Assembly: GCA_041659405.1 (NCBI GenBank)
Contig: JBAZYK010000008.1
Span: forward strand, 30,001-62,000
Length of the DNA stretch: 32,000 nucleotides
Direction: 5' to 3'
Origin: Candidatus Altimarinota bacterium
GTDB taxonomy: Bacteria > Patescibacteriota > Gracilibacteria > UBA1369
Below are positions 15 to 30,301 of this stretch, one piece after another; position 1 is the stretch's first letter; the number at the start of each line of letters is the position of its first letter. The position numbers and the translations under genes are program-made. The notes beneath the pieces were generated by a model, which had not been told where the DNA came from, ran no database searches, and was given only the letters and a program-made list of their open reading frames with translations.

Positions 15-2303
15 TTATAGCGTCCTAATTCGTTTTTCAATCTTATAAGCCTCAAGTTCATCTCCCTCCATCAACGGCATAAACCCTTCATAACGCATCC
101 CGCATTCATTGCCGTCCGCGATTTCATGTACTGGCTTTTCCCCATGTCTAAGCGAAATAATCTGCCCTTCGCCAACCAGTAGATCCTTTCTGAATACACG
201 TAATTTAACCTTATTTTCTATATAACCCTTAAGAACCTTACAACCAACAACCATATCTTTTTTGCCGGTCATAAACACCATTTTAACCTGAGCTCTTCCC
301 AAAATATTTTCGATCATTTCAGGTTCCAAAAGACCCGTTAAAATCTTCTTAACATCATCGAGCAGTTTATAAATAATCGTATAGTTTAAAACTTCAACTC
401 TTTCACGATCTGCCAATCTTTTAACATTCAGATTTGCCTCAACATGAAAACCCATCACGATTCCATTTGCAGCCGCAGCCATCAATACGTCCGATTCATT
501 GATTGCCCCAACTCCGGAAAGAATAATTTTAACACCAACATCTTCATTTTTAATTTGAGCGAGCGACTGCTTTAAAGCTTCCAAAGAACCTTTTGTATCA
601 GCCTTTAAAACCAGTTTCAATTGTTTGAGTTGTTTTGAACTGATCTGGGAAATAATTTCACCCACACCACGTTTTTCCAGCAAGGCCGCGTCCTTTAGAG
701 TCTTAACGTTCAGAGCCTGAGATCGCGCCGCATGTTCATCTGCAGTAACCCGTAAAATATCGCCGGAAAAAGGCGTTTCTGCAAGGCCGGCAATTAAAAC
801 AGGAGTTGAAGGAGGCGCAAACTTCATGCTTTTTCCAGCCGCATCTTTCATAACTTTAACGCGCCCATAAGTTGAACCGATAACCACATTGTCCATAACT
901 TTCAAAGTTCCCGTATTGATAATTACGGTCGCAATCGGGCCCAAACTTTGGTCCAAATGCGCTTCAATTACAGTTCCAATAGCACCACGATTTGGATTTG
1001 CGCGGAGGTTTTCCATATCCGCCAAAAGCAAAACCATATCCAAAAGTTGTTGAATTCCTTCGCCTTTTAAAGCCGAAACCGGCACCATAATCGTTTTTCC
1101 ACCCCATTCTTCCGGAACCAGACCAAACTGACCAAGTTCACCTTTTACACGTTCAGGAGCCGCGCCCGGTTTATCAATTTTGTTTATTGCCACAATAATT
1201 GGCACTTCCGCGTCTTGAGCATGATGAATAGCTTCTTCGGTTTGTGGCTTAATGCCTTCATCCGCAGCTACAACCAAAATCGCAATATCTGTAACTTTAG
1301 CTCCACGCGCACGCATAGCCGTAAACGCCTCGTGACCGGGAGTGTCAAGAAATGTGATCTTGCGGCTATTTTTTACCACCTGATAAGCACCAATATGCTG
1401 CGTAATTCCACCGGATTCACCGGCAACCACATTGGTTTCACGAATTGCATCCAATAAAGTTGTCTTACCATGATCAACGTGCCCCATCACCACCACAATT
1501 GGCGGACGTTGCTGCAAATCAGCCGGATCATCTTCTTTTAACATGCCTTTAATATTTCCGGAAAACACATCTTCAGCGCTTGCTTCAGTGCGCTTCTTTT
1601 TAATTTTGATGCCAAGATCGTCTGAAATAATTTGAGCGGTATCGTAGTCAATTTGTTGGTTGATGTTAGCCAAAATTCCATTTTTCATCAATTCACCAAT
1701 AATTTTTGCCGCACCAAATCCGGTTTTTTCGGCAAATTCTTTTACGGAAATAACCTCGGCAATTTCAATTGTTCTATCCGACAAAGGTCGTAAAACTTGT
1801 GGTTCAAACTTTTTAGCAGGTTTTTTACCACCGGCGTCTTTTCCGGCCATCTGTTTTCTTTGGCTGCGGATAAGCTCACGATCAAGTTCCTGGGCAATTA
1901 ATTCATCATAAAGTTCAGCCTCTTCCAAAGGTTTTTCCGTTCCACCCAAAATCTCCTCGGTAATATCAACATGAGGGCCTTCTTCCTGCACAGACTTAGC
2001 TTGTTCAACCGGTTTTACCGCCTGAGAAGCAGGTTTAACAGCTTGTGGTTTAGGAGCAAGTTTGATTTCTTTAACAACCGGCTTAGCTTTTATTTCCGCC
2101 ACTTTTGCCTTTGGTTCCGACTTTTGCTTTAAAGTTTTTGGAGCCGCCGCGACTTTTTTAGATTTCGGTTCTTTGCCTTCTGTTTTTTTTGCTGAAGTCT
2201 TAGCAACTTTAACAGGCTTCTTTTCTGCCTTTTTAGTTACTTTGGAAGCTGCAGCTTTTTTAGCGGGAGTTTTCTTCTTAATTTCGTCGCTTTTTTTTGG
2301 CAT
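15..2303 (-). CDS. infB: translation initiation factor IF-2
   Basis: GTPase motifs [12 protein letters not shown] (G1), DTPGH (G3) and NKID (G4), a Lys/Ala/Pro-rich N-terminal region and IF-2 C-terminal domains. The ORF track opens at a TTG at 2369. The first ATG ([11 protein letters not shown]) is at 2303 and is used here; the start is uncertain by 66 nt. Confidence 0.95.
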
Positions 2304-2377
2304 AAGTCTGATTAAAAATGGCCCTTTCAAAGGCGATAGCAGTTTATGGAAAAATGCGCGAAAAGTCAACTCGCTTT

Positions 2378-13689: not shown

Positions 13690-13766
13690 TGGTGCGCCCG
13701 GGCCGATTCGAACGGCCGACCCACAGCTTAGAAGGCTGTTGCTCTATCCATCTGAGCTACGGGCGC
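13690..13766 (-). tRNA. tRNA-Arg (anticodon TCT), CCA encoded
   Basis: The reverse complement gcgcccgtagctcagatggatagagcaacagccttctaagctgtgggtcggccgttcgaatcggcccgggcgcacca folds as a 77-nt cloverleaf: 7-bp acceptor stem, anticodon loop cTTCTAa, T-loop TTCGAAT. Confidence 0.93.
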
Positions 13767-17138: not shown

Positions 17139-17163
17139 CCCCCTGCGCCAAGAGCCCAGGGGG
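17139..17163 (+). terminator. GC-rich stem-loop after the HD-domain gene, no U-tract
   Basis: CCCCCTG-N11-CAGGGGG, 14 nt after the stop at 17125. It may terminate or stabilise the tsaE-HD transcript. Confidence 0.3.
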
Positions 17164-17189: not shown

Positions 17190-17379
17190 ATTGCCCACAG
17201 TTTTATCAAGGTTTCCTGGAGGGGATGGCTTTTTGGCGACATATGCGAGCGCAGCCGTTCATGGCATCATGATGCCATGAACTTCGTGAGGGCGTACATG
17301 CTAGCCCGAACGAACGGGCGAAGCGTTCGCCAAAAAGCCATCCTCTCCAGGAAACTCAACTTAAGAAACTGTATGCAAT
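17190..17379. repeat. structured hairpin repeat element, copy 1 (function unknown)
   Basis: The 81-nt core 17226-17306 is identical to 19183-19263. The flanks are mutually complementary: 17210-17239 pairs with 17327-17356 at 28/30 positions plus two G-T. A 26-bp perfect palindrome lies at 17257-17282. The element ends 5 nt from the stop of the 17384-18895 gene. Confidence 0.9.
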
Positions 17380-17383
17380 ACGC

Positions 17384-18895
17384 CTATTTTTTCAGCGCAG
17401 AAACCTGATTCATCGCAATGGTATCATTCAGATTTTCCCTGCGCTTATCCGCGATCAATCTTGCGGTGCGTTCACGCTGCCCAACCAAAGAATTAAGTCG
17501 TGCTCTGGTTAATTTTCCAAAAACCCCGGCTCCCATAGAAGAAGGTGTTCCGGCTAAACCTTGAATTTGCTGGAATTTAAAGACAGCATGGGCCGTCACA
17601 TCGCCATAAAATCCGGATGGTTCAATTGCTAAAAGATTCAGTCTTTTTAGTTCCTGCTGTAATTTTGTAACATTAGCTCCTTTGGAGCCAAGCTGCAAAT
17701 CACCATCAAAGGCATTGGCTACAACAATGGTATCACTGTTAATCTGTGTTAAAGCCGTATTCAACTTATCTGCCAAAATCTGCATGGTTTTAGGCCCAAA
17801 AAAGCCTGCGCCCTGATCTTCACGATTATCTATAATCTGGTTATCTTTCTGAAATTTAAAGATTGCTTCGACCGTTTTATTGTCAAAAACACCATTCACA
17901 TCAACATTATAGTTAAGACGTTTTAAGGCTGTTTGAAGCTTTTTAACTTCCGCGCCCTGATCGTCTTTACCTAAGCTGGTTTGAGGAAGATGATTTTTTA
18001 ATTTGGTTTGATGATCGGTTAGCGCGCTTTCAAGCTCTCGTCTGGATTGAGGGCCAAAGTATCCGGCACCAAAATCCAAAGGAGTATCAATAACTCCTGA
18101 GTCTATTTGGAACTGCATTAAGGCTTTTTGAGTAGAATCATCAAATTTTCCGGTAGGTTCGCTCTTATAATATCCTAGAGTTTTCATAGTAGATTGCATG
18201 CTTTTTACCGCATCACTCTGATCCCCAAACTCAAGGTCGTTTGAAAACAGGGCCGGTTTAGACTGGAATGCAGCCTGTACGAATTTTTCAGCCGCTGAGT
18301 AACCTTCCAAGTAAACCTCTTCTTTTAGATCCGGACGTTGACCATAGACTGTAACATCAACTGTTCTGCGGCCCCAATTTAAAGCTCTTTGAAGGCCGAC
18401 GTCTCCATAGCCCATCCAAACATCAAGGCGATCATAAGCCTGGTTTCGCACACCGGCATGAACAATGGCACCTCCGCGATCATGAACGGCCACTACTCCA
18501 ATTCCGGGAATTTTCATTTTTATACCAAAAGCATAACCAGATGGAGCGGCAATCATACCCGGATAAACAGGAGATCCATCCGCACCATGAACACCTCCAC
18601 CATTCAAGCGCACATCCCCGGCAAAAGAACCCGTTACATATTTGTTTTGATTAGCCAGAGGGGAATAGTAAGCGGAAATAATAAAAGTCTTATCATAAGG
18701 ATAAGCCGGCTTTGCAGGTTGGCTCAAATCTGCCGCCGCAGGTAATTGATCCTGCGTAGTAGCCTGCGTAGAAGCTTCAGCTTGCGTGCTTTGATCTCCG
18801 GCAAAGCTGATGCCCGGCTCCAGCGCGATTAAAGAAGCACAAAGCATAATGAACCACGTCGAAATCTTAATTTTGTTTGTTTGTTTATTTTTCAT
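17384..18895 (-). CDS. secreted cell-wall protein: 3D (MltA/Rpf-associated) domain plus three PG_binding_1 repeats
   Basis: Signal peptide (WFIMLCASLIALEPGISFA). 3D-domain-like region (ISAYYSPL...GDVRLNGGGVHGADGS...VAVHDRGGAI...DRLDVWMG). Three peptidoglycan-binding repeats with the pattern G..V..LQ..L..L.Y......G.F...T..A...FQ. Confidence 0.85.
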   Translation of the reverse strand: MKNKQTNKIKISTWFIMLCASLIALEPGISFAGDQSTQAEASTQATTQDQLPAAADLSQPAKPAYPYDKTFIISAYYSPLANQNKYVTGSFAGDVRLNGGGVHGADGSPVYPGMIAAPSGYAFGIKMKIPGIGVVAVHDRGGAIVHAGVRNQAYDRLDVWMGYGDVGLQRALNWGRRTVDVTVYGQRPDLKEEVYLEGYSAAEKFVQAAFQSKPALFSNDLEFGDQSDAVKSMQSTMKTLGYYKSEPTGKFDDSTQKALMQFQIDSGVIDTPLDFGAGYFGPQSRRELESALTDHQTKLKNHLPQTSLGKDDQGAEVKKLQTALKRLNYNVDVNGVFDNKTVEAIFKFQKDNQIIDNREDQGAGFFGPKTMQILADKLNTALTQINSDTIVVANAFDGDLQLGSKGANVTKLQQELKRLNLLAIEPSGFYGDVTAHAVFKFQQIQGLAGTPSSMGAGVFGKLTRARLNSLVGQRERTARLIADKRRENLNDTIAMNQVSALKK

Positions 18896-18967
18896 ATTAA
18901 TTTTTGTTTGAGTTTATTTTTCTTTTTGGTCCTTTTTTGCCGCCCTTATTTTTAAGGCGATCAGACC

Positions 18968-18976
18968 ATTATATCA
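18968..18976 (-). promoter_or_regulatory. candidate extended -10 promoter (TGaTATAAT) for the 3D/PG-binding gene
   Basis: The minus strand reads tgatataat, about 72 nt upstream of the ATG at 18895. A-tract-rich DNA lies just upstream of it. Confidence 0.45.
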
Positions 18977-19006
18977 TCTAAAAAACCCATAAACAGCAAA
19001 ATATAT

Positions 19007-19043
19007 TGCCAAAAAGCCCCATTATTGTTTGCCTCCAGGGAAC
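19007..19043. repeat. solo fragment resembling the 3' arm of the hairpin repeat
   Basis: ttgccaaaaagcccc attattgtttg cctccagggaac resembles the copy 1 3' arm ttcgccaaaaagccatcctctccaggaaac. The gccaaaaagcc and ctccagg(g)aac blocks are shared. Confidence 0.5.
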
Positions 19044-19139
19044 GAAAAACCCCAAAAAAGCAAAAACTCACCAAAAAATCAGAAAATTCCTTTAGCAGCC
19101 GGGCTCAATACCCAAGCAAAAACCCAAAAAAATCCGCAA

Positions 19140-19338
19140 TTGCATACTTGTTCATTGGCTTATCAAAGTTTTTCTGAGGGGGTGGCTTTTTGGCGACATA
19201 TGCGAGCGCAGCCGTTCATGGCATCATGATGCCATGAACTTCGTGAGGGCGTACATGCTAGCCTCCGCGAATAGGCGAAGCGTTCACAAAAAACATTTCC
19301 CCTGAAAACTTTGATAAAGCCAGTGAACAAGTACGCAA
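19140..19338. repeat. structured hairpin repeat element, copy 2 (function unknown)
   Basis: The 81-nt core 19183-19263 is identical to copy 1. The outer arms 19140-19168 and 19309-19338 are complementary except for 2 mismatches and 1 bulge. The palindrome lies at 19214-19239. The element abuts the stop codon of the ATPase gene at 19339. Confidence 0.9.
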
Positions 19339-21810
19339 CTAAATCGTCACGCCGATTCTACGCATAATCTCATGATCGATAAACTCACGATCACGCCCAT
19401 ATTTAAGCCTTGAAAGCTGTTTAAATGCTTCTGCCGCTTCCATATCTCCTTTTTGAGTGTATGGATTTAATGGGACAATACTAAATGGTCGGCTTGGCTG
19501 TGTATCAATCGAAAGTTTCATTACCGCCTTGAATTTATCCAAATTAACCAGGTCCTGTTCAGAGAAAACCGGAGACATTTCTTTAGCCATATATTCAGCA
19601 TCCTGAGCGCCAATCTTATAAGCCATCATCGTTCCAACGTTACCAAACACCGCATCTTTAACCTTGGATTTTCCATCCGCGCCTTCCAACTGTTTAATGT
19701 ACTGATGCGCCATATTCAGGCCAAGACGGTACTTTCTGGCTTCAGACAAAATCGATTCAATACTATCGGTAATGTAGTTTTGGAATTCATCAATATAAAG
19801 GAAGAAATCCTTGCGCTGATCCTTGGGGATTTTTTGGCGTCTAAGCGCAGCCATTTGCAGTTTGGAAACGATAATCAAACCGATCAACTTGGAGTTAATT
19901 TCACCAACCTCACCTTTGGAAAGATTCATTAACAAGATCTTACCTTCCTGCATTACTTTCATAAAATCAAAGGCCGATTTGGTCTGTCCAATGATGTTAC
20001 GCATCATGGTGTTAGTCACGAATTGACCGAATTTAGCGGCAAAGTAGGGGATCATTTCCTGTTTTTCACGGGCACCGGTCTTGGCCATCTGGTTTTCCCA
20101 GAATGATCTAACCACCGGATTTGTCACATGTTCAACCTGTAATTTCTGAAAGTCATCATCTGTGAAAAGACGGACGATATCCGTTAAAGCGCCGCCTTCC
20201 GGATTAGCCATTAAAGTTAAGCAACCGTTACGGAAATAATCCTGAATACGTGGACCAAAGATCTCTTCATTAAAGAGTTTAATCATAATATTCATGGCAT
20301 CCGAAGCCACAAGTTCCTTTTCTTCCGGAGAATCACCTTCCAACAAATTTAAACCCATCGGACGGTCCAAATCACCTGGATTGAAGTAAATAACGTCATC
20401 CGCACGACTTCTTGGAATAAATGGCAAAATATCATCAATAAGCGATCCATGGGGATCGATCACGGCTATACCATGTCCCATTTCCAAATCCTGACGAATC
20501 ATGGTCTGGAAAATGGAAGATTTACCGGTACCGGTTTGTCCAATAACGTAAAAATGCCTAAAACGATCTTCATTCTTCAGGCGAATTTCGGTAGTAACTC
20601 CGCGGTAATAGTTGTGTCCAAGCAAAATGCCTTCCTTGGGAACATTGGCGGGAGCAGGCGCGATTTTATAGTTCTGCCAGGCAATACTTGGCGTTCTGTT
20701 ATAACGAATATTTGGAAGATGAAATAAAGATGCCACTTCGTCGGAAGCCAAAAGCATCTTTTTATGACTGAGCACCTGTGTCCAGGGTTTGCTAAAATGG
20801 CGGAAAATATAATCCTTGATGATTTTTTTCTCGGAAGCATATTTGCTATGCTCAAAAGAATTCGCCGCCGGTGAGTTATATTGGGCAAAGGCACTGCGAA
20901 TACTGGTTAACTGGGCGCGAGCCTCACGTTCGGTCTCCGAAGCTGTTATAAGGCGAATAATAGTTTCAAAACCGACTTTGGAATTTTTTTCTTCCATGGC
21001 TTTGACCTCTTCATCGGTCATTGGAGTCGTTCGGCTGCTTTCGGCCGGTTTGCTCTCTTCCACCTTGCCATGCACAAAAAAGTCGAATAATGCGGAAATC
21101 CAGCTCAAAGGATTTAAGCCGGAAAACCCATGTTTTTTTTGATTCAAAATATCTTTAGCCTCTTCACGGCCTTTGTGTTGCCAATGATTATCTTTCGGCT
21201 TAACCATAATCTGAATGGCCGCACCTTCGTTCGGGCCCAATTTGGAAAGAGCATTGGTCAAATTGTTCACCGGATCGGAATTAAGCCGGCTATAGCTCCT
21301 AAAAGGGAACATATAGTGCTTTTTCAGCTGCATGTAGCAGGCCGCAAACTTGGAATCCGGTTTAAAAATATTGTAATCGGGTACTTTTTCAACGTAACAT
21401 TCCGGATAAAAACTCGTAATTTGCTTTTCAATCAGGCTCACCAAGTCTCTTGGGACCACCAGATAAAAATAAATCAGATTATCAATAACCGCATATTCAA
21501 AAGACAAAAAGTCCTGGCCGGTAAAATAATGTGTAAAGCCTTTTATGTAGATACTGTGCAAAGATTCAAACATATGGGTCGCAATGCCCAAAACCTCTTT
21601 AAAATCCTTTGAAGCCGAAAAAGAAGCCTGTTCCTGCTCCAGATCTTCTTTGGATTCACGCTTTGGAATTTGGATCTTTAAAAACACCATATTCAGCGAT
21701 CTATGCTGATCTTGGTGATGATGGATTTCGTATTTAACAAAGACAAAAAACAAATAAAACGCAACCGCCGTGGAAATCCCCAGTAATAAATTTAAAAAGA
21801 AATCTTGCAT
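19339..21810 (-). CDS. VirD4/TraD/TraG-like coupling-protein-type P-loop ATPase (FtsK/HerA superfamily) with an unassigned N-terminal half
   Basis: N-terminal TM helix. Walker A VIGQTGTGKSS, then IAVIDPHG and FNPGD..PMGLNLL. Walker B FFLYIDEFQNY. ARKYRLGLNMAHQYIKQL is typical of the TraG/TraD C-terminal region. The first ~400 aa match nothing I recognise. Confidence 0.75.
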   Translation of the reverse strand: MQDFFLNLLLGISTAVAFYLFFVFVKYEIHHHQDQHRSLNMVFLKIQIPKRESKEDLEQEQASFSASKDFKEVLGIATHMFESLHSIYIKGFTHYFTGQDFLSFEYAVIDNLIYFYLVVPRDLVSLIEKQITSFYPECYVEKVPDYNIFKPDSKFAACYMQLKKHYMFPFRSYSRLNSDPVNNLTNALSKLGPNEGAAIQIMVKPKDNHWQHKGREEAKDILNQKKHGFSGLNPLSWISALFDFFVHGKVEESKPAESSRTTPMTDEEVKAMEEKNSKVGFETIIRLITASETEREARAQLTSIRSAFAQYNSPAANSFEHSKYASEKKIIKDYIFRHFSKPWTQVLSHKKMLLASDEVASLFHLPNIRYNRTPSIAWQNYKIAPAPANVPKEGILLGHNYYRGVTTEIRLKNEDRFRHFYVIGQTGTGKSSIFQTMIRQDLEMGHGIAVIDPHGSLIDDILPFIPRSRADDVIYFNPGDLDRPMGLNLLEGDSPEEKELVASDAMNIMIKLFNEEIFGPRIQDYFRNGCLTLMANPEGGALTDIVRLFTDDDFQKLQVEHVTNPVVRSFWENQMAKTGAREKQEMIPYFAAKFGQFVTNTMMRNIIGQTKSAFDFMKVMQEGKILLMNLSKGEVGEINSKLIGLIIVSKLQMAALRRQKIPKDQRKDFFLYIDEFQNYITDSIESILSEARKYRLGLNMAHQYIKQLEGADGKSKVKDAVFGNVGTMMAYKIGAQDAEYMAKEMSPVFSEQDLVNLDKFKAVMKLSIDTQPSRPFSIVPLNPYTQKGDMEAAEAFKQLSRLKYGRDREFIDHEIMRRIGVTI

Positions 21811-27486: not shown

Positions 27487-27571
27487 TGGTGCCGGGGAGA
27501 GGACTCGAACCTCCACGCCTTGTGGGCGTCAGCTCCTAAGGCTGATGCGTCTGCCATTTCGCCACCCCGGC
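27487..27571 (-). tRNA. tRNA-Leu (anticodon TAG), long variable arm, CCA encoded
   Basis: The reverse complement gccggggtggcgaaatggcagacgcatcagccttaggagctgacgcccacaaggcgtggaggttcgagtcctctccccggcacca has anticodon loop cTTAGGa, a class II variable arm (cgcc-caca-aggcg) and T-loop TTCGAGT. Confidence 0.92.
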
Positions 27572-29342: not shown

Positions 29343-30301
29343 CAAGCCTGGAATTCCAAAGAAATATCCAGCGCTTTTGCCGAATGTGTAAGCATCCCGA
29401 GCGAAATTATGTCCACTCCACTCGCCGCATACGTCTTTAAATTTTCGAAATTAATTCCACCCGAAGCCTCAAAAAAGATGTTCTTTTGCCAGCCCATTTT
29501 TTTACATTGATTGATAATCATTTTAATTTCGGTAACTTTCATATTATCAAGCATGATATAAAGCGGCTGAAAGCCTTTTGGCGCCTGCTCAAAATAATAT
29601 TGCGCAACTTTTAACGCATCGTTTTTGGAAGTCACTTCAATCTCCACAAAATTTCCTAACTGCTCTTTTGAACTTTCAAAAATTTTATCCAAAATTGCCG
29701 CAAAATTATTTTCAAAAAGTGCCACGTGATTATCCTTAATTAAAACCGCATCACTTAGAGAAAGTCTATGTGTCCCGCCTCCACCAACCATGCAAGCCTT
29801 TTTATCAAACAGTGGCCATAAAGTTTTTCGCGTTGGGGTAATCAAAACCTTGCTCGCGCTTAAACTGCAGGCCTTGGCAGTAGCAGTTGCGACCCCGGAC
29901 ATCCTTTGCAGAAAATTTAAAATTGTTCTTTCCAGTAACAAAATATCCTGCGCGGAACCTTTCAAACTTCCAAATTCCTGGCCTTTGGTAAGTCTTTCGG
30001 CATCGCGCACTTTAAAATTAACAGAAACCTCACCTAATTTAATACTTGCAAGCTTCTCAACATGATTCAAAAAAAACTCTATCTCTTCAATGCCGGCAAC
30101 AACGCCATCACTTTTTGCCAAGAAAAAAGCCTCAATTTTCCTTTCAGGATCAGGTAAAAGCCGGCTGGTTATATCGCCTTTATTTCTAACATCCAGACGC
30201 AAATTATTTTCAAAAAAATCCAGGACATGTTGCCTGTATTCTTGATTATTAATGCGCAAATATTTTTCCAAACAATGCGTTTTTCTAATGATGTTTATCA
30301 T
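29342..30301 (-). CDS. nadC: nicotinate-nucleotide pyrophosphorylase [carboxylating] (QPRTase family)
   Basis: QPRTase signature TRKTLWPLFDKKACMVGGGGTHRLSLSDAVLIKDNH and C-terminal EASGGINFENLKTYAASGVDIISLGMLTHSAKALDISLE. A ModD-like paralog cannot be excluded by eye. Confidence 0.8.
   Translation of the reverse strand: MINIIRKTHCLEKYLRINNQEYRQHVLDFFENNLRLDVRNKGDITSRLLPDPERKIEAFFLAKSDGVVAGIEEIEFFLNHVEKLASIKLGEVSVNFKVRDAERLTKGQEFGSLKGSAQDILLLERTILNFLQRMSGVATATAKACSLSASKVLITPTRKTLWPLFDKKACMVGGGGTHRLSLSDAVLIKDNHVALFENNFAAILDKIFESSKEQLGNFVEIEVTSKNDALKVAQYYFEQAPKGFQPLYIMLDNMKVTEIKMIINQCKKMGWQKNIFFEASGGINFENLKTYAASGVDIISLGMLTHSAKALDISLEFQA

Follow-up and report, generated by a model that had tools for sequence, protein, structure and literature searches.

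What are the two hairpin-forming stretches of 190-200 nt that bracket a cell-wall gene in an uncultivated Peregrinibacteria bacterium of the candidate phyla radiation (CPR)? The 32,000-nt stretch of DNA analyzed here, positions 30,001 to 62,000 of contig JBAZYK010000008.1 (Candidatus Altimarinota bacterium, assembly GCA_041659405.1; hereafter the window), carries two copies of this element as direct repeats: copy 1 (ATTGC...GCAAT; 17190-17380, 191 nt) and copy 2 (19139-19338, 200 nt), neither assigned to a strand. The segments 17203-17336 and 19160-19293 (134 nt) are 90% identical at an offset of 1957 nt. Copy 1 lies between the stop of an HD-domain gene (17125, plus strand) and that of a peptidoglycan-binding gene (17384-17386, minus strand), which we refer to as the bracketed gene. 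Copy 2 adjoins the TAG stop (19339-19341) of a coupling-ATPase gene and is upstream of the promoter region of the bracketed gene. The distance to the TAG stop of the minus-strand gene is 4 nt for copy 1 and 0 nt for copy 2, in agreement with an original prediction, made from the letters of the window, of two same-orientation copies offset by 1957 nt near minus-strand stops. Both copies are unchanged in an independent ENA assembly (ERZ27249449, locus L071) that is 99.995% identical over 20.6 kb, so they are not an assembly artefact.

The whole element is an inverted repeat around a core, and the terminal motif (A)TTGCNYAC or its complement is present at all observed element ends. Folding energies are -107.5 kcal/mol for copy 1 and -100.3 kcal/mol for copy 2, compared with about -54.5 kcal/mol for dinucleotide shuffles (z-scores of -11.9 and -10.3, respectively). 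In copy 1, the 5' arm of the inner stem (17211-17239) pairs with a 3' arm at 17327-17355 (29 nt, 97% complementary). The long hairpin of copy 2 is formed by arms 19140-19190 and 19288-19338, and its outer stem of ~29 bp (19140-19168 paired with 19309-19338; duplex energy -38.2 kcal/mol) is far longer than the short terminal stem of copy 1. The complementary flanks and long hairpins that had been proposed for each copy are thus borne out. No conserved open reading frame (ORF) was found: the only frame that stays open across copy 1 has no start in copy 2 and is interrupted by a TGA in the relatives' copy at the second site. A small-peptide hypothesis was rejected because this reading frame is not conserved across copies.

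No third copy was found in ~47 kb of the source genome (L071, L073, and L075), and searches of ~1.15 Mb from 78 related loci by blastn, nhmmer (--max), and a covariance model built from a structure-aware alignment recovered only the known copies. Weak matches in the related loci fell in coding sequence of the coupling ATPase or AspRS, or in a GC-rich hairpin in an ORF of locus L053. The L053 hairpin (2276-2363, minus strand, in a 456-aa ORF) scored 20.7 bits (E ~0.06) with the covariance model of the element; the base of its stem, GTTTTCGGATGG, is as in the site-2 arm of the relatives, its core is unrelated, and the match was judged to be due to chance. Rfam 15 at gathering thresholds returned only two tRNAs for the whole window. 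At E <= 10, searches of the window, a 2.7-kb region, and the element alone gave only tRNAs and hairpin noise, the best match of the element alone, to a miRNA-precursor model, reaching 21.4 bits where the gathering score is 70. The palindrome and two blocks of the core were also sought by exact scans of GTDB species representatives, JGI metagenomes, and IMG/VR, with no true match; the sole hit (L069) was rejected as chance, as it lies inside unrelated high-GC coding sequence. Blastn against phage and plasmid collections gave no match, and full-text searches of the literature turned up no element of this kind for Peregrinibacteria or Patescibacteria. The window element matches no described family and is, as judged from sequence searches, a new family of small palindromic intergenic repeats. 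The Rfam check and the database searches that the original prediction had called for accord with its description of an unrecognized, hairpin-structured element.

A nearly invariant core at two old sites

Both sites, designated 1 and 2 after the copies, are occupied in the window species, which is represented by the window and by loci L071 and L072 of the same genome. Two related strains also carry the element: R57 (L068 and L079; 83% nucleotide identity to the window) and R55 (L078 and L070; 85% to the window and 93% to R57). For each of these strains, both halves of the site-1 copy and the 5' half of the site-2 copy were observed, and the Logan contigs of both are broken inside the shared core, as expected for a repeat. 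The outer arm of the site-2 3' half in R55 and R57 is predicted to mirror CCTACCCGTTCACTGC. The E lineage, known from three independent samples (L001, L076, and L077) with 70% amino acid identity in the bracketed gene, lacks the element; P0293 and P0292 belong to this element-free lineage. The element is thus polymorphic for presence and absence at orthologous sites, being present in the window species, R57, and R55 and absent from L001, L076, and L077. Both copies were already in place in the ancestor that the window species shares with its sister strains. The earlier view that this is not a plain recent duplication is upheld, as the same two sites are occupied in two related strains and site-specific differences are common across species.

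For comparison of the insertion sites, alignments were anchored and colinear, and shuffles served as controls. The two intergenic regions of the E lineage measure 235 and 66 nt, versus 443 and 258 nt in the window. Site 2 of this lineage is colinear with the window from 18896 to ~19141; here the element is a clean insertion before the stop codon, and a remnant is undetectable. The 66-nt spacer at site 1 (2273-2338 of L001, 10472-10537 of L076) is colinear with the 3' half of copy 1 (z = 4.1), sharing the pieces TATCAAGG, CGAACCAAAGGGCCTAAGCG, and GCAAT, and 0 of 500 shuffles reach this similarity. Controls gave z = 0.65 against copy 2, -0.7 against the reverse strand, and z <= 2.3 for seven control spacers. 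Site 1 of the E lineage is therefore probably a decayed deletion remnant and not a never-occupied site, which suggests that the element may predate the split between the window species and the E lineage and may be dispensable.

The core spans 87 nt in each copy (17240-17326 in copy 1 and 19197-19283 in copy 2), of which ~70 nt, GCGACATATGCGAGCGCAGCCGTTCATGGC ... GTGAGGGCGTACATGCTAGCC, are unchanged in every observed copy. It includes a perfect 26-nt palindrome, GTTCATGGCATCATGATGCCATGAAC, with 9-11-bp arms around a short spacer, located at the apex of copy 1 (17257-17282) and at 19214-19239 in copy 2. As had been noticed at the outset, the palindrome is exact; it occurs in the window only at 17257 and 19214, and window shuffles give 0 matches even with up to 3 mismatches. 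Between the window and its relatives, the observed core segments are identical at 97 of 98 positions. Identity at four-fold degenerate sites is 0.70 (139/199) in the bracketed gene and 0.66 (41/62) in the HD gene, and the arms of the element are 0.78-0.86 identical. Under the neutral rate, the identity of the core would have a probability of ~3e-14. This comparison shows that the core (~70-87 nt) is held nearly invariant, on the evidence of substitution rates, by purifying selection. Because it is conserved between species with ~30% diverged neutral sites, gene conversion within a genome cannot explain it. Nor have the copies simply been homogenized, since a site-specific core segment reads CGAACGAAC at site 1 and TCCGCGAAT at site 2 and each version is conserved across species; the core of copy 2 likewise has the site-2-specific TCCGCGAATA in place of CGAACGAACG of copy 1.

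Within the window, a tract of 81 nt is letter-identical between the copies, as originally reported (17226-17306 and 19183-19263). This exact run begins inside the inner 5' arm, and the inner 5' arm of copy 2 is of the copy-1 type, with a 3' arm of the type found in the relatives' site-1 copies. The inner 5' arm of copy 2 pairs at -43.1 kcal/mol with the 3' arm of copy 1 but at only -17.1 kcal/mol with its own 3' arm. With inner arms of different types, copy 2 thus has a weak, mismatched inner stem of its own and is still held together by its 29-bp outer stem. Gene conversion between the two copies, in the lineage of the window, is in our inference the best explanation of the 81-nt identity. 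The earlier argument had set an identical core with diverged but pairing arms against a plain recent duplication; the identity within the window is better explained by gene conversion, and the evidence for constraint is the conservation across species (97/98 versus ~70%).

An inner stem that drifts and stays paired

The inner stem has a different sequence in the window species (GTTTCCTGGAGGGGATGGCTTTTTGGCGA), R57 (GTTTCCGAAAGGGAATGTTTTTTGCGCGA), and R55 (GTTTCCGGTGGGAATGTTTTTTGCGA). In each, the 3' arm is complementary to its own 5' arm (28/29, 29/29, and 26/26 positions, respectively), with the indels mirrored too, and no 5' arm pairs as well with the 3' arm of another strain as with its own (-67.3, -62.3, and -61.8 kcal/mol for own arms versus -32 to -53 kcal/mol for cross-combinations). 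A structure-aware alignment places changes on both sides of 9 of the 29 stem pairs, with 95.5% of cells paired; 0 of 500 shuffles reach these values, and slid partners give at most 3 such pairs. Gaps in this alignment were placed in mirror fashion by hand, and the comparison of the window species with R57 requires none. The inner-stem arms are nearly all Watson-Crick paired, almost without wobble pairs. These alignments show an inner stem (26-30 bp) that drifts freely in sequence yet stays perfectly complementary. That the diverged arms of the copies still pair had been recognized in the window, and the two-sided changes carry this observation across strains.

Between R57 and R55, which are 93% identical overall, the stems show two double substitutions and two mirrored indels. 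These mirrored changes are too many for the 7% divergence of the two strains, and independent mutation followed by selection would be far too slow to produce them. Copying of one arm onto the other appears to fit the mirrored changes better than stepwise compensation. Arm complementarity is most likely kept by template switching in the hairpin during replication, perhaps reinforced by selection. Template-switch mutations are known to perfect imperfect inverted repeats and constitute a mutational hotspot mechanism in E. coli (PMC7202029). Alternatively, mirrored arms could arise by replacement of the whole stem-core-stem unit from another copy. Under either templated copying or unit replacement, the mirrored changes alone are not good evidence for function at the RNA level.

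This point bears on the possibility that the copies are a paralogous pair of free-standing structured small RNA (sRNA) genes, in which a conserved three-way-junction core on a long stem binds a protein or another RNA in trans and the position at stop codons is incidental. Such genes would be consistent with the extreme conservation of the core, the stable fold, for which a three-way junction is predicted consistently on the plus strand of all copies, the maintained pairing of the stem, and the lack of coding potential. The mirrored arm changes, however, exceed what the divergence of R57 and R55 allows and so are not specifically evidence of an RNA, and covariation is entirely absent in the helices within the core. 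As the core helices are invariant across all observed copies and never vary, any fold inside the core is left without covariation support. A side hairpin with a compensatory swap (gcccg..cgggc versus gcct..aggc), also proposed earlier, did not hold up, as it loses a pair in both related strains (CGGGC to CCGGC), and an alternative helix (TTCGT..ACGAA plus GGGC..GCCC) fits all copies as well. Promoter-like or canonical terminator signals were not found flanking the copies, and no Rfam relative was detected even at the relaxed threshold. The distribution is also extremely narrow, with the nearest sister lineage having lost the element without replacement. We regard an sRNA pair as the most serious of the alternatives, though an unlikely one.

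At the other extreme, the element could be a functionless selfish or relic palindrome whose conservation stems only from concerted evolution and hairpin-templated self-correction. Gene conversion between the copies is evident, template switching can keep arms complementary without selection (PMC7202029), and one lineage has lost the element, all of which would be expected of such a relic. Conversion within a genome, however, cannot give a 97/98 identity of the core across ~30% diverged neutral sites, and the site-specific core segments have not been homogenized yet are conserved across species. Given the conservation of the core across species, this is the weakest of the alternatives and in our view very improbable.

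Position behind stop codons and possible roles

Across copies, the element follows the stop codon of the upstream gene at a distance of 0, 4, or 6 nt, in the sense orientation of that gene. Because both copies follow stop codons in sense orientation, a co-transcribed hairpin in the 3' untranslated region (3'-UTR) is the most economical function. Our preferred reading, held tentatively and at slightly less than an even chance, is that the copies represent a new lineage-restricted family of palindromic elements with a Correia/ERIC-like architecture and a role as a 3'-UTR hairpin acting in cis. On the minus strand, the element would probably be transcribed together with the upstream gene and form its 3' untranslated end. 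The very stable, near-perfect stem and the conserved apical domain could then serve in cis as a barrier, an insulator, or a site of processing, with a block to read-through, protection from 3' exonucleases, or targeting by a double-strand-specific RNase as possible effects. Exchange of sequence between the two copies by gene conversion would give the 81-nt identity seen in the window. Of the candidates named originally (a structured sRNA family, a repeat like REP, ERIC, or a miniature inverted-repeat transposable element [MITE], or a recombination scaffold), the ERIC/MITE-like option fits best, and the case for a structured sRNA that was drawn from the arms is weakened. The element is MITE-like in being small (191 and 200 nt) and non-coding, with terminal inverted repeats and presence/absence polymorphism; membership in this class is not fully established, as dispersal, a clear target-site duplication, and a cognate transposase are all unproven.

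Several observations weigh against a mobile 3'-UTR hairpin. Only two copies, both around one gene, are present in the ~47 kb of genome, with none elsewhere in the related loci, so that dispersal, the hallmark of mobile repeats, is not shown. No transposase was identified in the same ~47 kb, which agrees with what had been stated for the window. The target-site duplication is ambiguous, with TA at site 1 in two of three strains and none at site 2. The site-1 flanks read TA-TTGC...GCAA-TA in the window and TA-TTGC...ACAA-TA in R55, and the left flank is AT in R57; at site 2, the flanks are AA on the left and CT on the right in the window, and the left flank is CA or TA in the relatives. As the insertions are old, a target-site duplication may have decayed. 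Both strands fold about equally well, the plus strand slightly better, and attempts to assign the strand from wobble pairs or fold energy gave no decision. An intrinsic-terminator scan calls neither copy. Along the minus strand, GGATTTTTTTGGGTTTTTG comes 5 nt after copy 2 in the window; the sequence there is T-rich in R55 and only weakly so in R57, and copy 1 is without an adjacent U-tract. Given a poor U-tract at site 1 and a variable one at site 2, the element does not look like a canonical intrinsic terminator. Nor is it indispensable, since the element-free lineage manages without it. Finally, an invariant core of 70 nt exceeds the needs of a simple barrier hairpin and hints at a specific partner.

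A reading that gives more weight to the core is that, on its self-correcting stem, it forms a new, lineage-specific functional nucleic-acid module, which could be either an RNA domain that is bound by a dedicated protein or RNA partner and controls the cell-wall hydrolase/coupling-ATPase pair or a hairpin that propagates and repairs itself by fold-back templating. We consider this quite improbable. Fold-back templating as a means of propagation and repair would be a mode not described for bacterial repeats.

The palindrome also raises the possibility of a site that acts as DNA, at which a protein dimer such as a recombinase, partition protein, or nucleoid protein binds the palindrome and core, or at which these extrude as a cruciform, and the two copies serve as a recombination substrate for deletion or amplification of the bracketed gene. 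A perfect palindrome with 9-11-bp arms around a short spacer is what such a site would look like, two direct copies with 81 identical nt surround one gene, past exchange of sequence between them is evident, and perfect Watson-Crick arms with few wobble pairs are more DNA-like than RNA-like. Yet six assemblies from three strains have the same arrangement and the same orientation of the core, with no deletion or inversion variants. No recombinase gene was found in the ~47 kb examined, and all relatives, whether they carry the element or not, have the bracketed gene at this locus. The arms, whose sequence is unconstrained, are no recognition site for a protein. On balance, a DNA-level site seems improbable.

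The genes on both sides of copy 2 are on the minus strand. The bracketed gene (17384-18895) encodes a secreted protein of 503 aa with three peptidoglycan-binding domains (Pfam PG_binding_1 three times, plus PG_binding_2). The gene upstream of it (19339-21810), whose stop adjoins copy 2, encodes a VirD4/TraG-like coupling ATPase of 823 aa (TrwB_AAD_bind, T4SS-DNA_transf, and TraG-D_C). Nearby housekeeping genes encode TsaE, the HD-domain protein, an M23 peptidase with SLH domains, AspRS, DnaE, and RuvB. The bracketed gene is found at the same locus in the same gene order in 67 Peregrinibacteria/Gracilibacteria genomes, and the two elements therefore did not bring it in. A second VirD4/TraG-like coupling-ATPase paralogue of 854 aa with the same domain set is located ~8 kb past the right end of the window (L073, 1-245). 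To the left of the window (L075, 15326-15765), a RelB-like/ParE toxin-antitoxin pair among sugar-nucleotide epimerase genes is one of the few accessory-looking loci in a mostly housekeeping region.

Upstream of the bracketed gene, an extended -10 box, TGATATAAT, was read from the sequence at 18968-18976 (minus strand); it is also present in R57 and R55 and in the element-free lineage. This box would be the bracketed gene's own promoter, downstream of copy 2, and its conservation places copy 2 between the stop of the coupling gene and the promoter region of the next gene. Just upstream of the box, ATATATTGCCAAAAAGCC (19001-19018) is complementary at 16 of 18 positions to the core edge GGCTTTTTGGCGACATAT; with E ~0.2 within the window, this complementarity may be due to chance. 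The extension GGCTTTTT is found in the element-carrying lineages and is missing in the element-free lineage (TATATTGCCAAATATTT). An A-rich low-complexity tract of CAAAAA and CCAAAAAA repeats (19040-19135) separates copy 2 from the promoter region. Its length varies strongly from strain to strain; without the element, the upstream spacer measures 243 nt in the window and 297 nt in R57, and is much shorter in R55. On the other side of the bracketed gene, a GC-rich hairpin (CCCCCTG...CAGGGGG, 17139-17163) lies between the stop of the HD-domain gene and copy 1. It belongs to a stretch of ~37 nt that is missing in both related strains, is followed by T-rich sequence on the minus strand, and could be what actually terminates the bracketed gene in the window species.

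Logan contigs of the same organism (start of L072, end of L074) break at both tRNA genes of the window (13693-13766 and 27490-27571) and in the element core, which suggests that sequences common to other genomes or strains in the samples fragment the assemblies at these places. In a distant Peregrinibacterium, an element of 274 nt without similarity to the one described here (L019, 9606-9879) has perfect 26-bp terminal inverted repeats, CTAGGAGCTGTTCATATAACCAACTT, and each tip reads CTAG. On the left it overlaps the TAG stop of the upstream ORF, and on the right it ends ~10 nt before the ATG of the peptidoglycan-binding homologue. It has the look of a separate MITE-like insertion into a comparable slot, a type of event that evidently recurs there. 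A long hairpin with 26-bp perfect inverted repeats (CGGACTCCCGCGTCTTCCGGACGGAC) and a partly palindromic spacer of 126 nt is present in a Gracilibacteria metagenome-assembled genome (L054, 16865-17042).

Hardly any small mobile or repeat elements or structured non-coding RNAs have been described from the tiny, gene-dense genomes of CPR/Patescibacteria. The element combines three evolutionary regimes within 200 nt: an invariant core, arms that are free but complementary down to their indels, and gene conversion between neighbors. If the core has a specific partner, the element would be a lineage-specific regulatory device beside genes thought to be involved in the cell envelope and in DNA or protein transfer of an episymbiont. 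If it has none, the element would caution that mirrored "compensatory" changes in long palindromes need not mean selection at the RNA level.

Comparison with described palindromes and repeats

Several identities were considered and rejected. An inverton does not fit, as the orientation of the core is the same in all six assemblies and the arm sequence varies freely between strains. A gene cassette, an integrated island bounded by attL and attR, the oriT of a conjugative element, and a retron msd were likewise rejected: the genes on either side keep their synteny in all relatives whether or not the element is there, no relaxase, reverse transcriptase, or integrase is encoded nearby, and the ends and core do not fit. 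The palindrome does not appear to match the consensus of parS or dif sites.

An integron attC site resembles the window element in being an imperfect hairpin directly after a stop codon, in fixed orientation, with its structure more conserved than the sequence of its arms. In attC, however, the base of the stem is conserved (R and L boxes, RYYYAAC...GTTRRRY core sites) and the center varies, which is the opposite of what is seen here. The genes flanked by the window element are syntenic, housekeeping-context genes in all relatives and not cassettes. With ends of TTGC...GCAA, a conserved center, no integrase nearby, and flanking genes syntenic in 67 relatives, an attC identity was rejected.

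For the behavior of the arms, the closest parallel is the template-switch correction of quasi-palindromes (Ripley model), studied in E. coli thyA and lacZ reporters, in which an imperfect inverted repeat is made perfect (PMC7202029). This model accounts for mirrored changes that arise faster than independent double mutations. It describes a mutational process and not an element family, it was shown for short E. coli reporters and not for natural 30-bp arms 87 nt apart or for CPR bacteria, and we apply it to the window element by inference.

Among repeat families, the ERIC/IRU elements of enterobacteria are likewise imperfect palindromes (ERIC ~127 nt) that are intergenic and occupy orthologous sites in related species. 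ERIC elements are co-transcribed and have an orientation-dependent effect on the stability of the upstream transcript (PMC2229807). Their sequence is unrelated to that of the window element, which is longer (190-200 nt), is known from only three strains, and has a perfectly paired stem with mirrored indels. The invariant core and the self-mirroring perfect arms are its unusual features.

The Correia elements of Neisseria (CREE/NEMIS) are similarly small and non-coding, with inverted-repeat arms that enclose a conserved core, form a long hairpin, and lie beside genes. Correia elements combine inverted repeats and a conserved core and interact with RNase III (PMC2649163); they are co-transcribed, their stem is an RNase III substrate, and they can alter the expression of adjacent genes (PMC2649163, PMC2229807). 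TA at the termini or target, as in Correia, is possible at site 1 of the window element, whereas site 2 has no TA duplication. The two do not resemble each other in sequence, and Correia elements number hundreds of copies per genome, compared with the two adjacent copies known here. The distribution of constraint also differs: in Correia elements the 24-26-bp arms are conserved in sequence, whereas in the window element the arms are free and the core is invariant.

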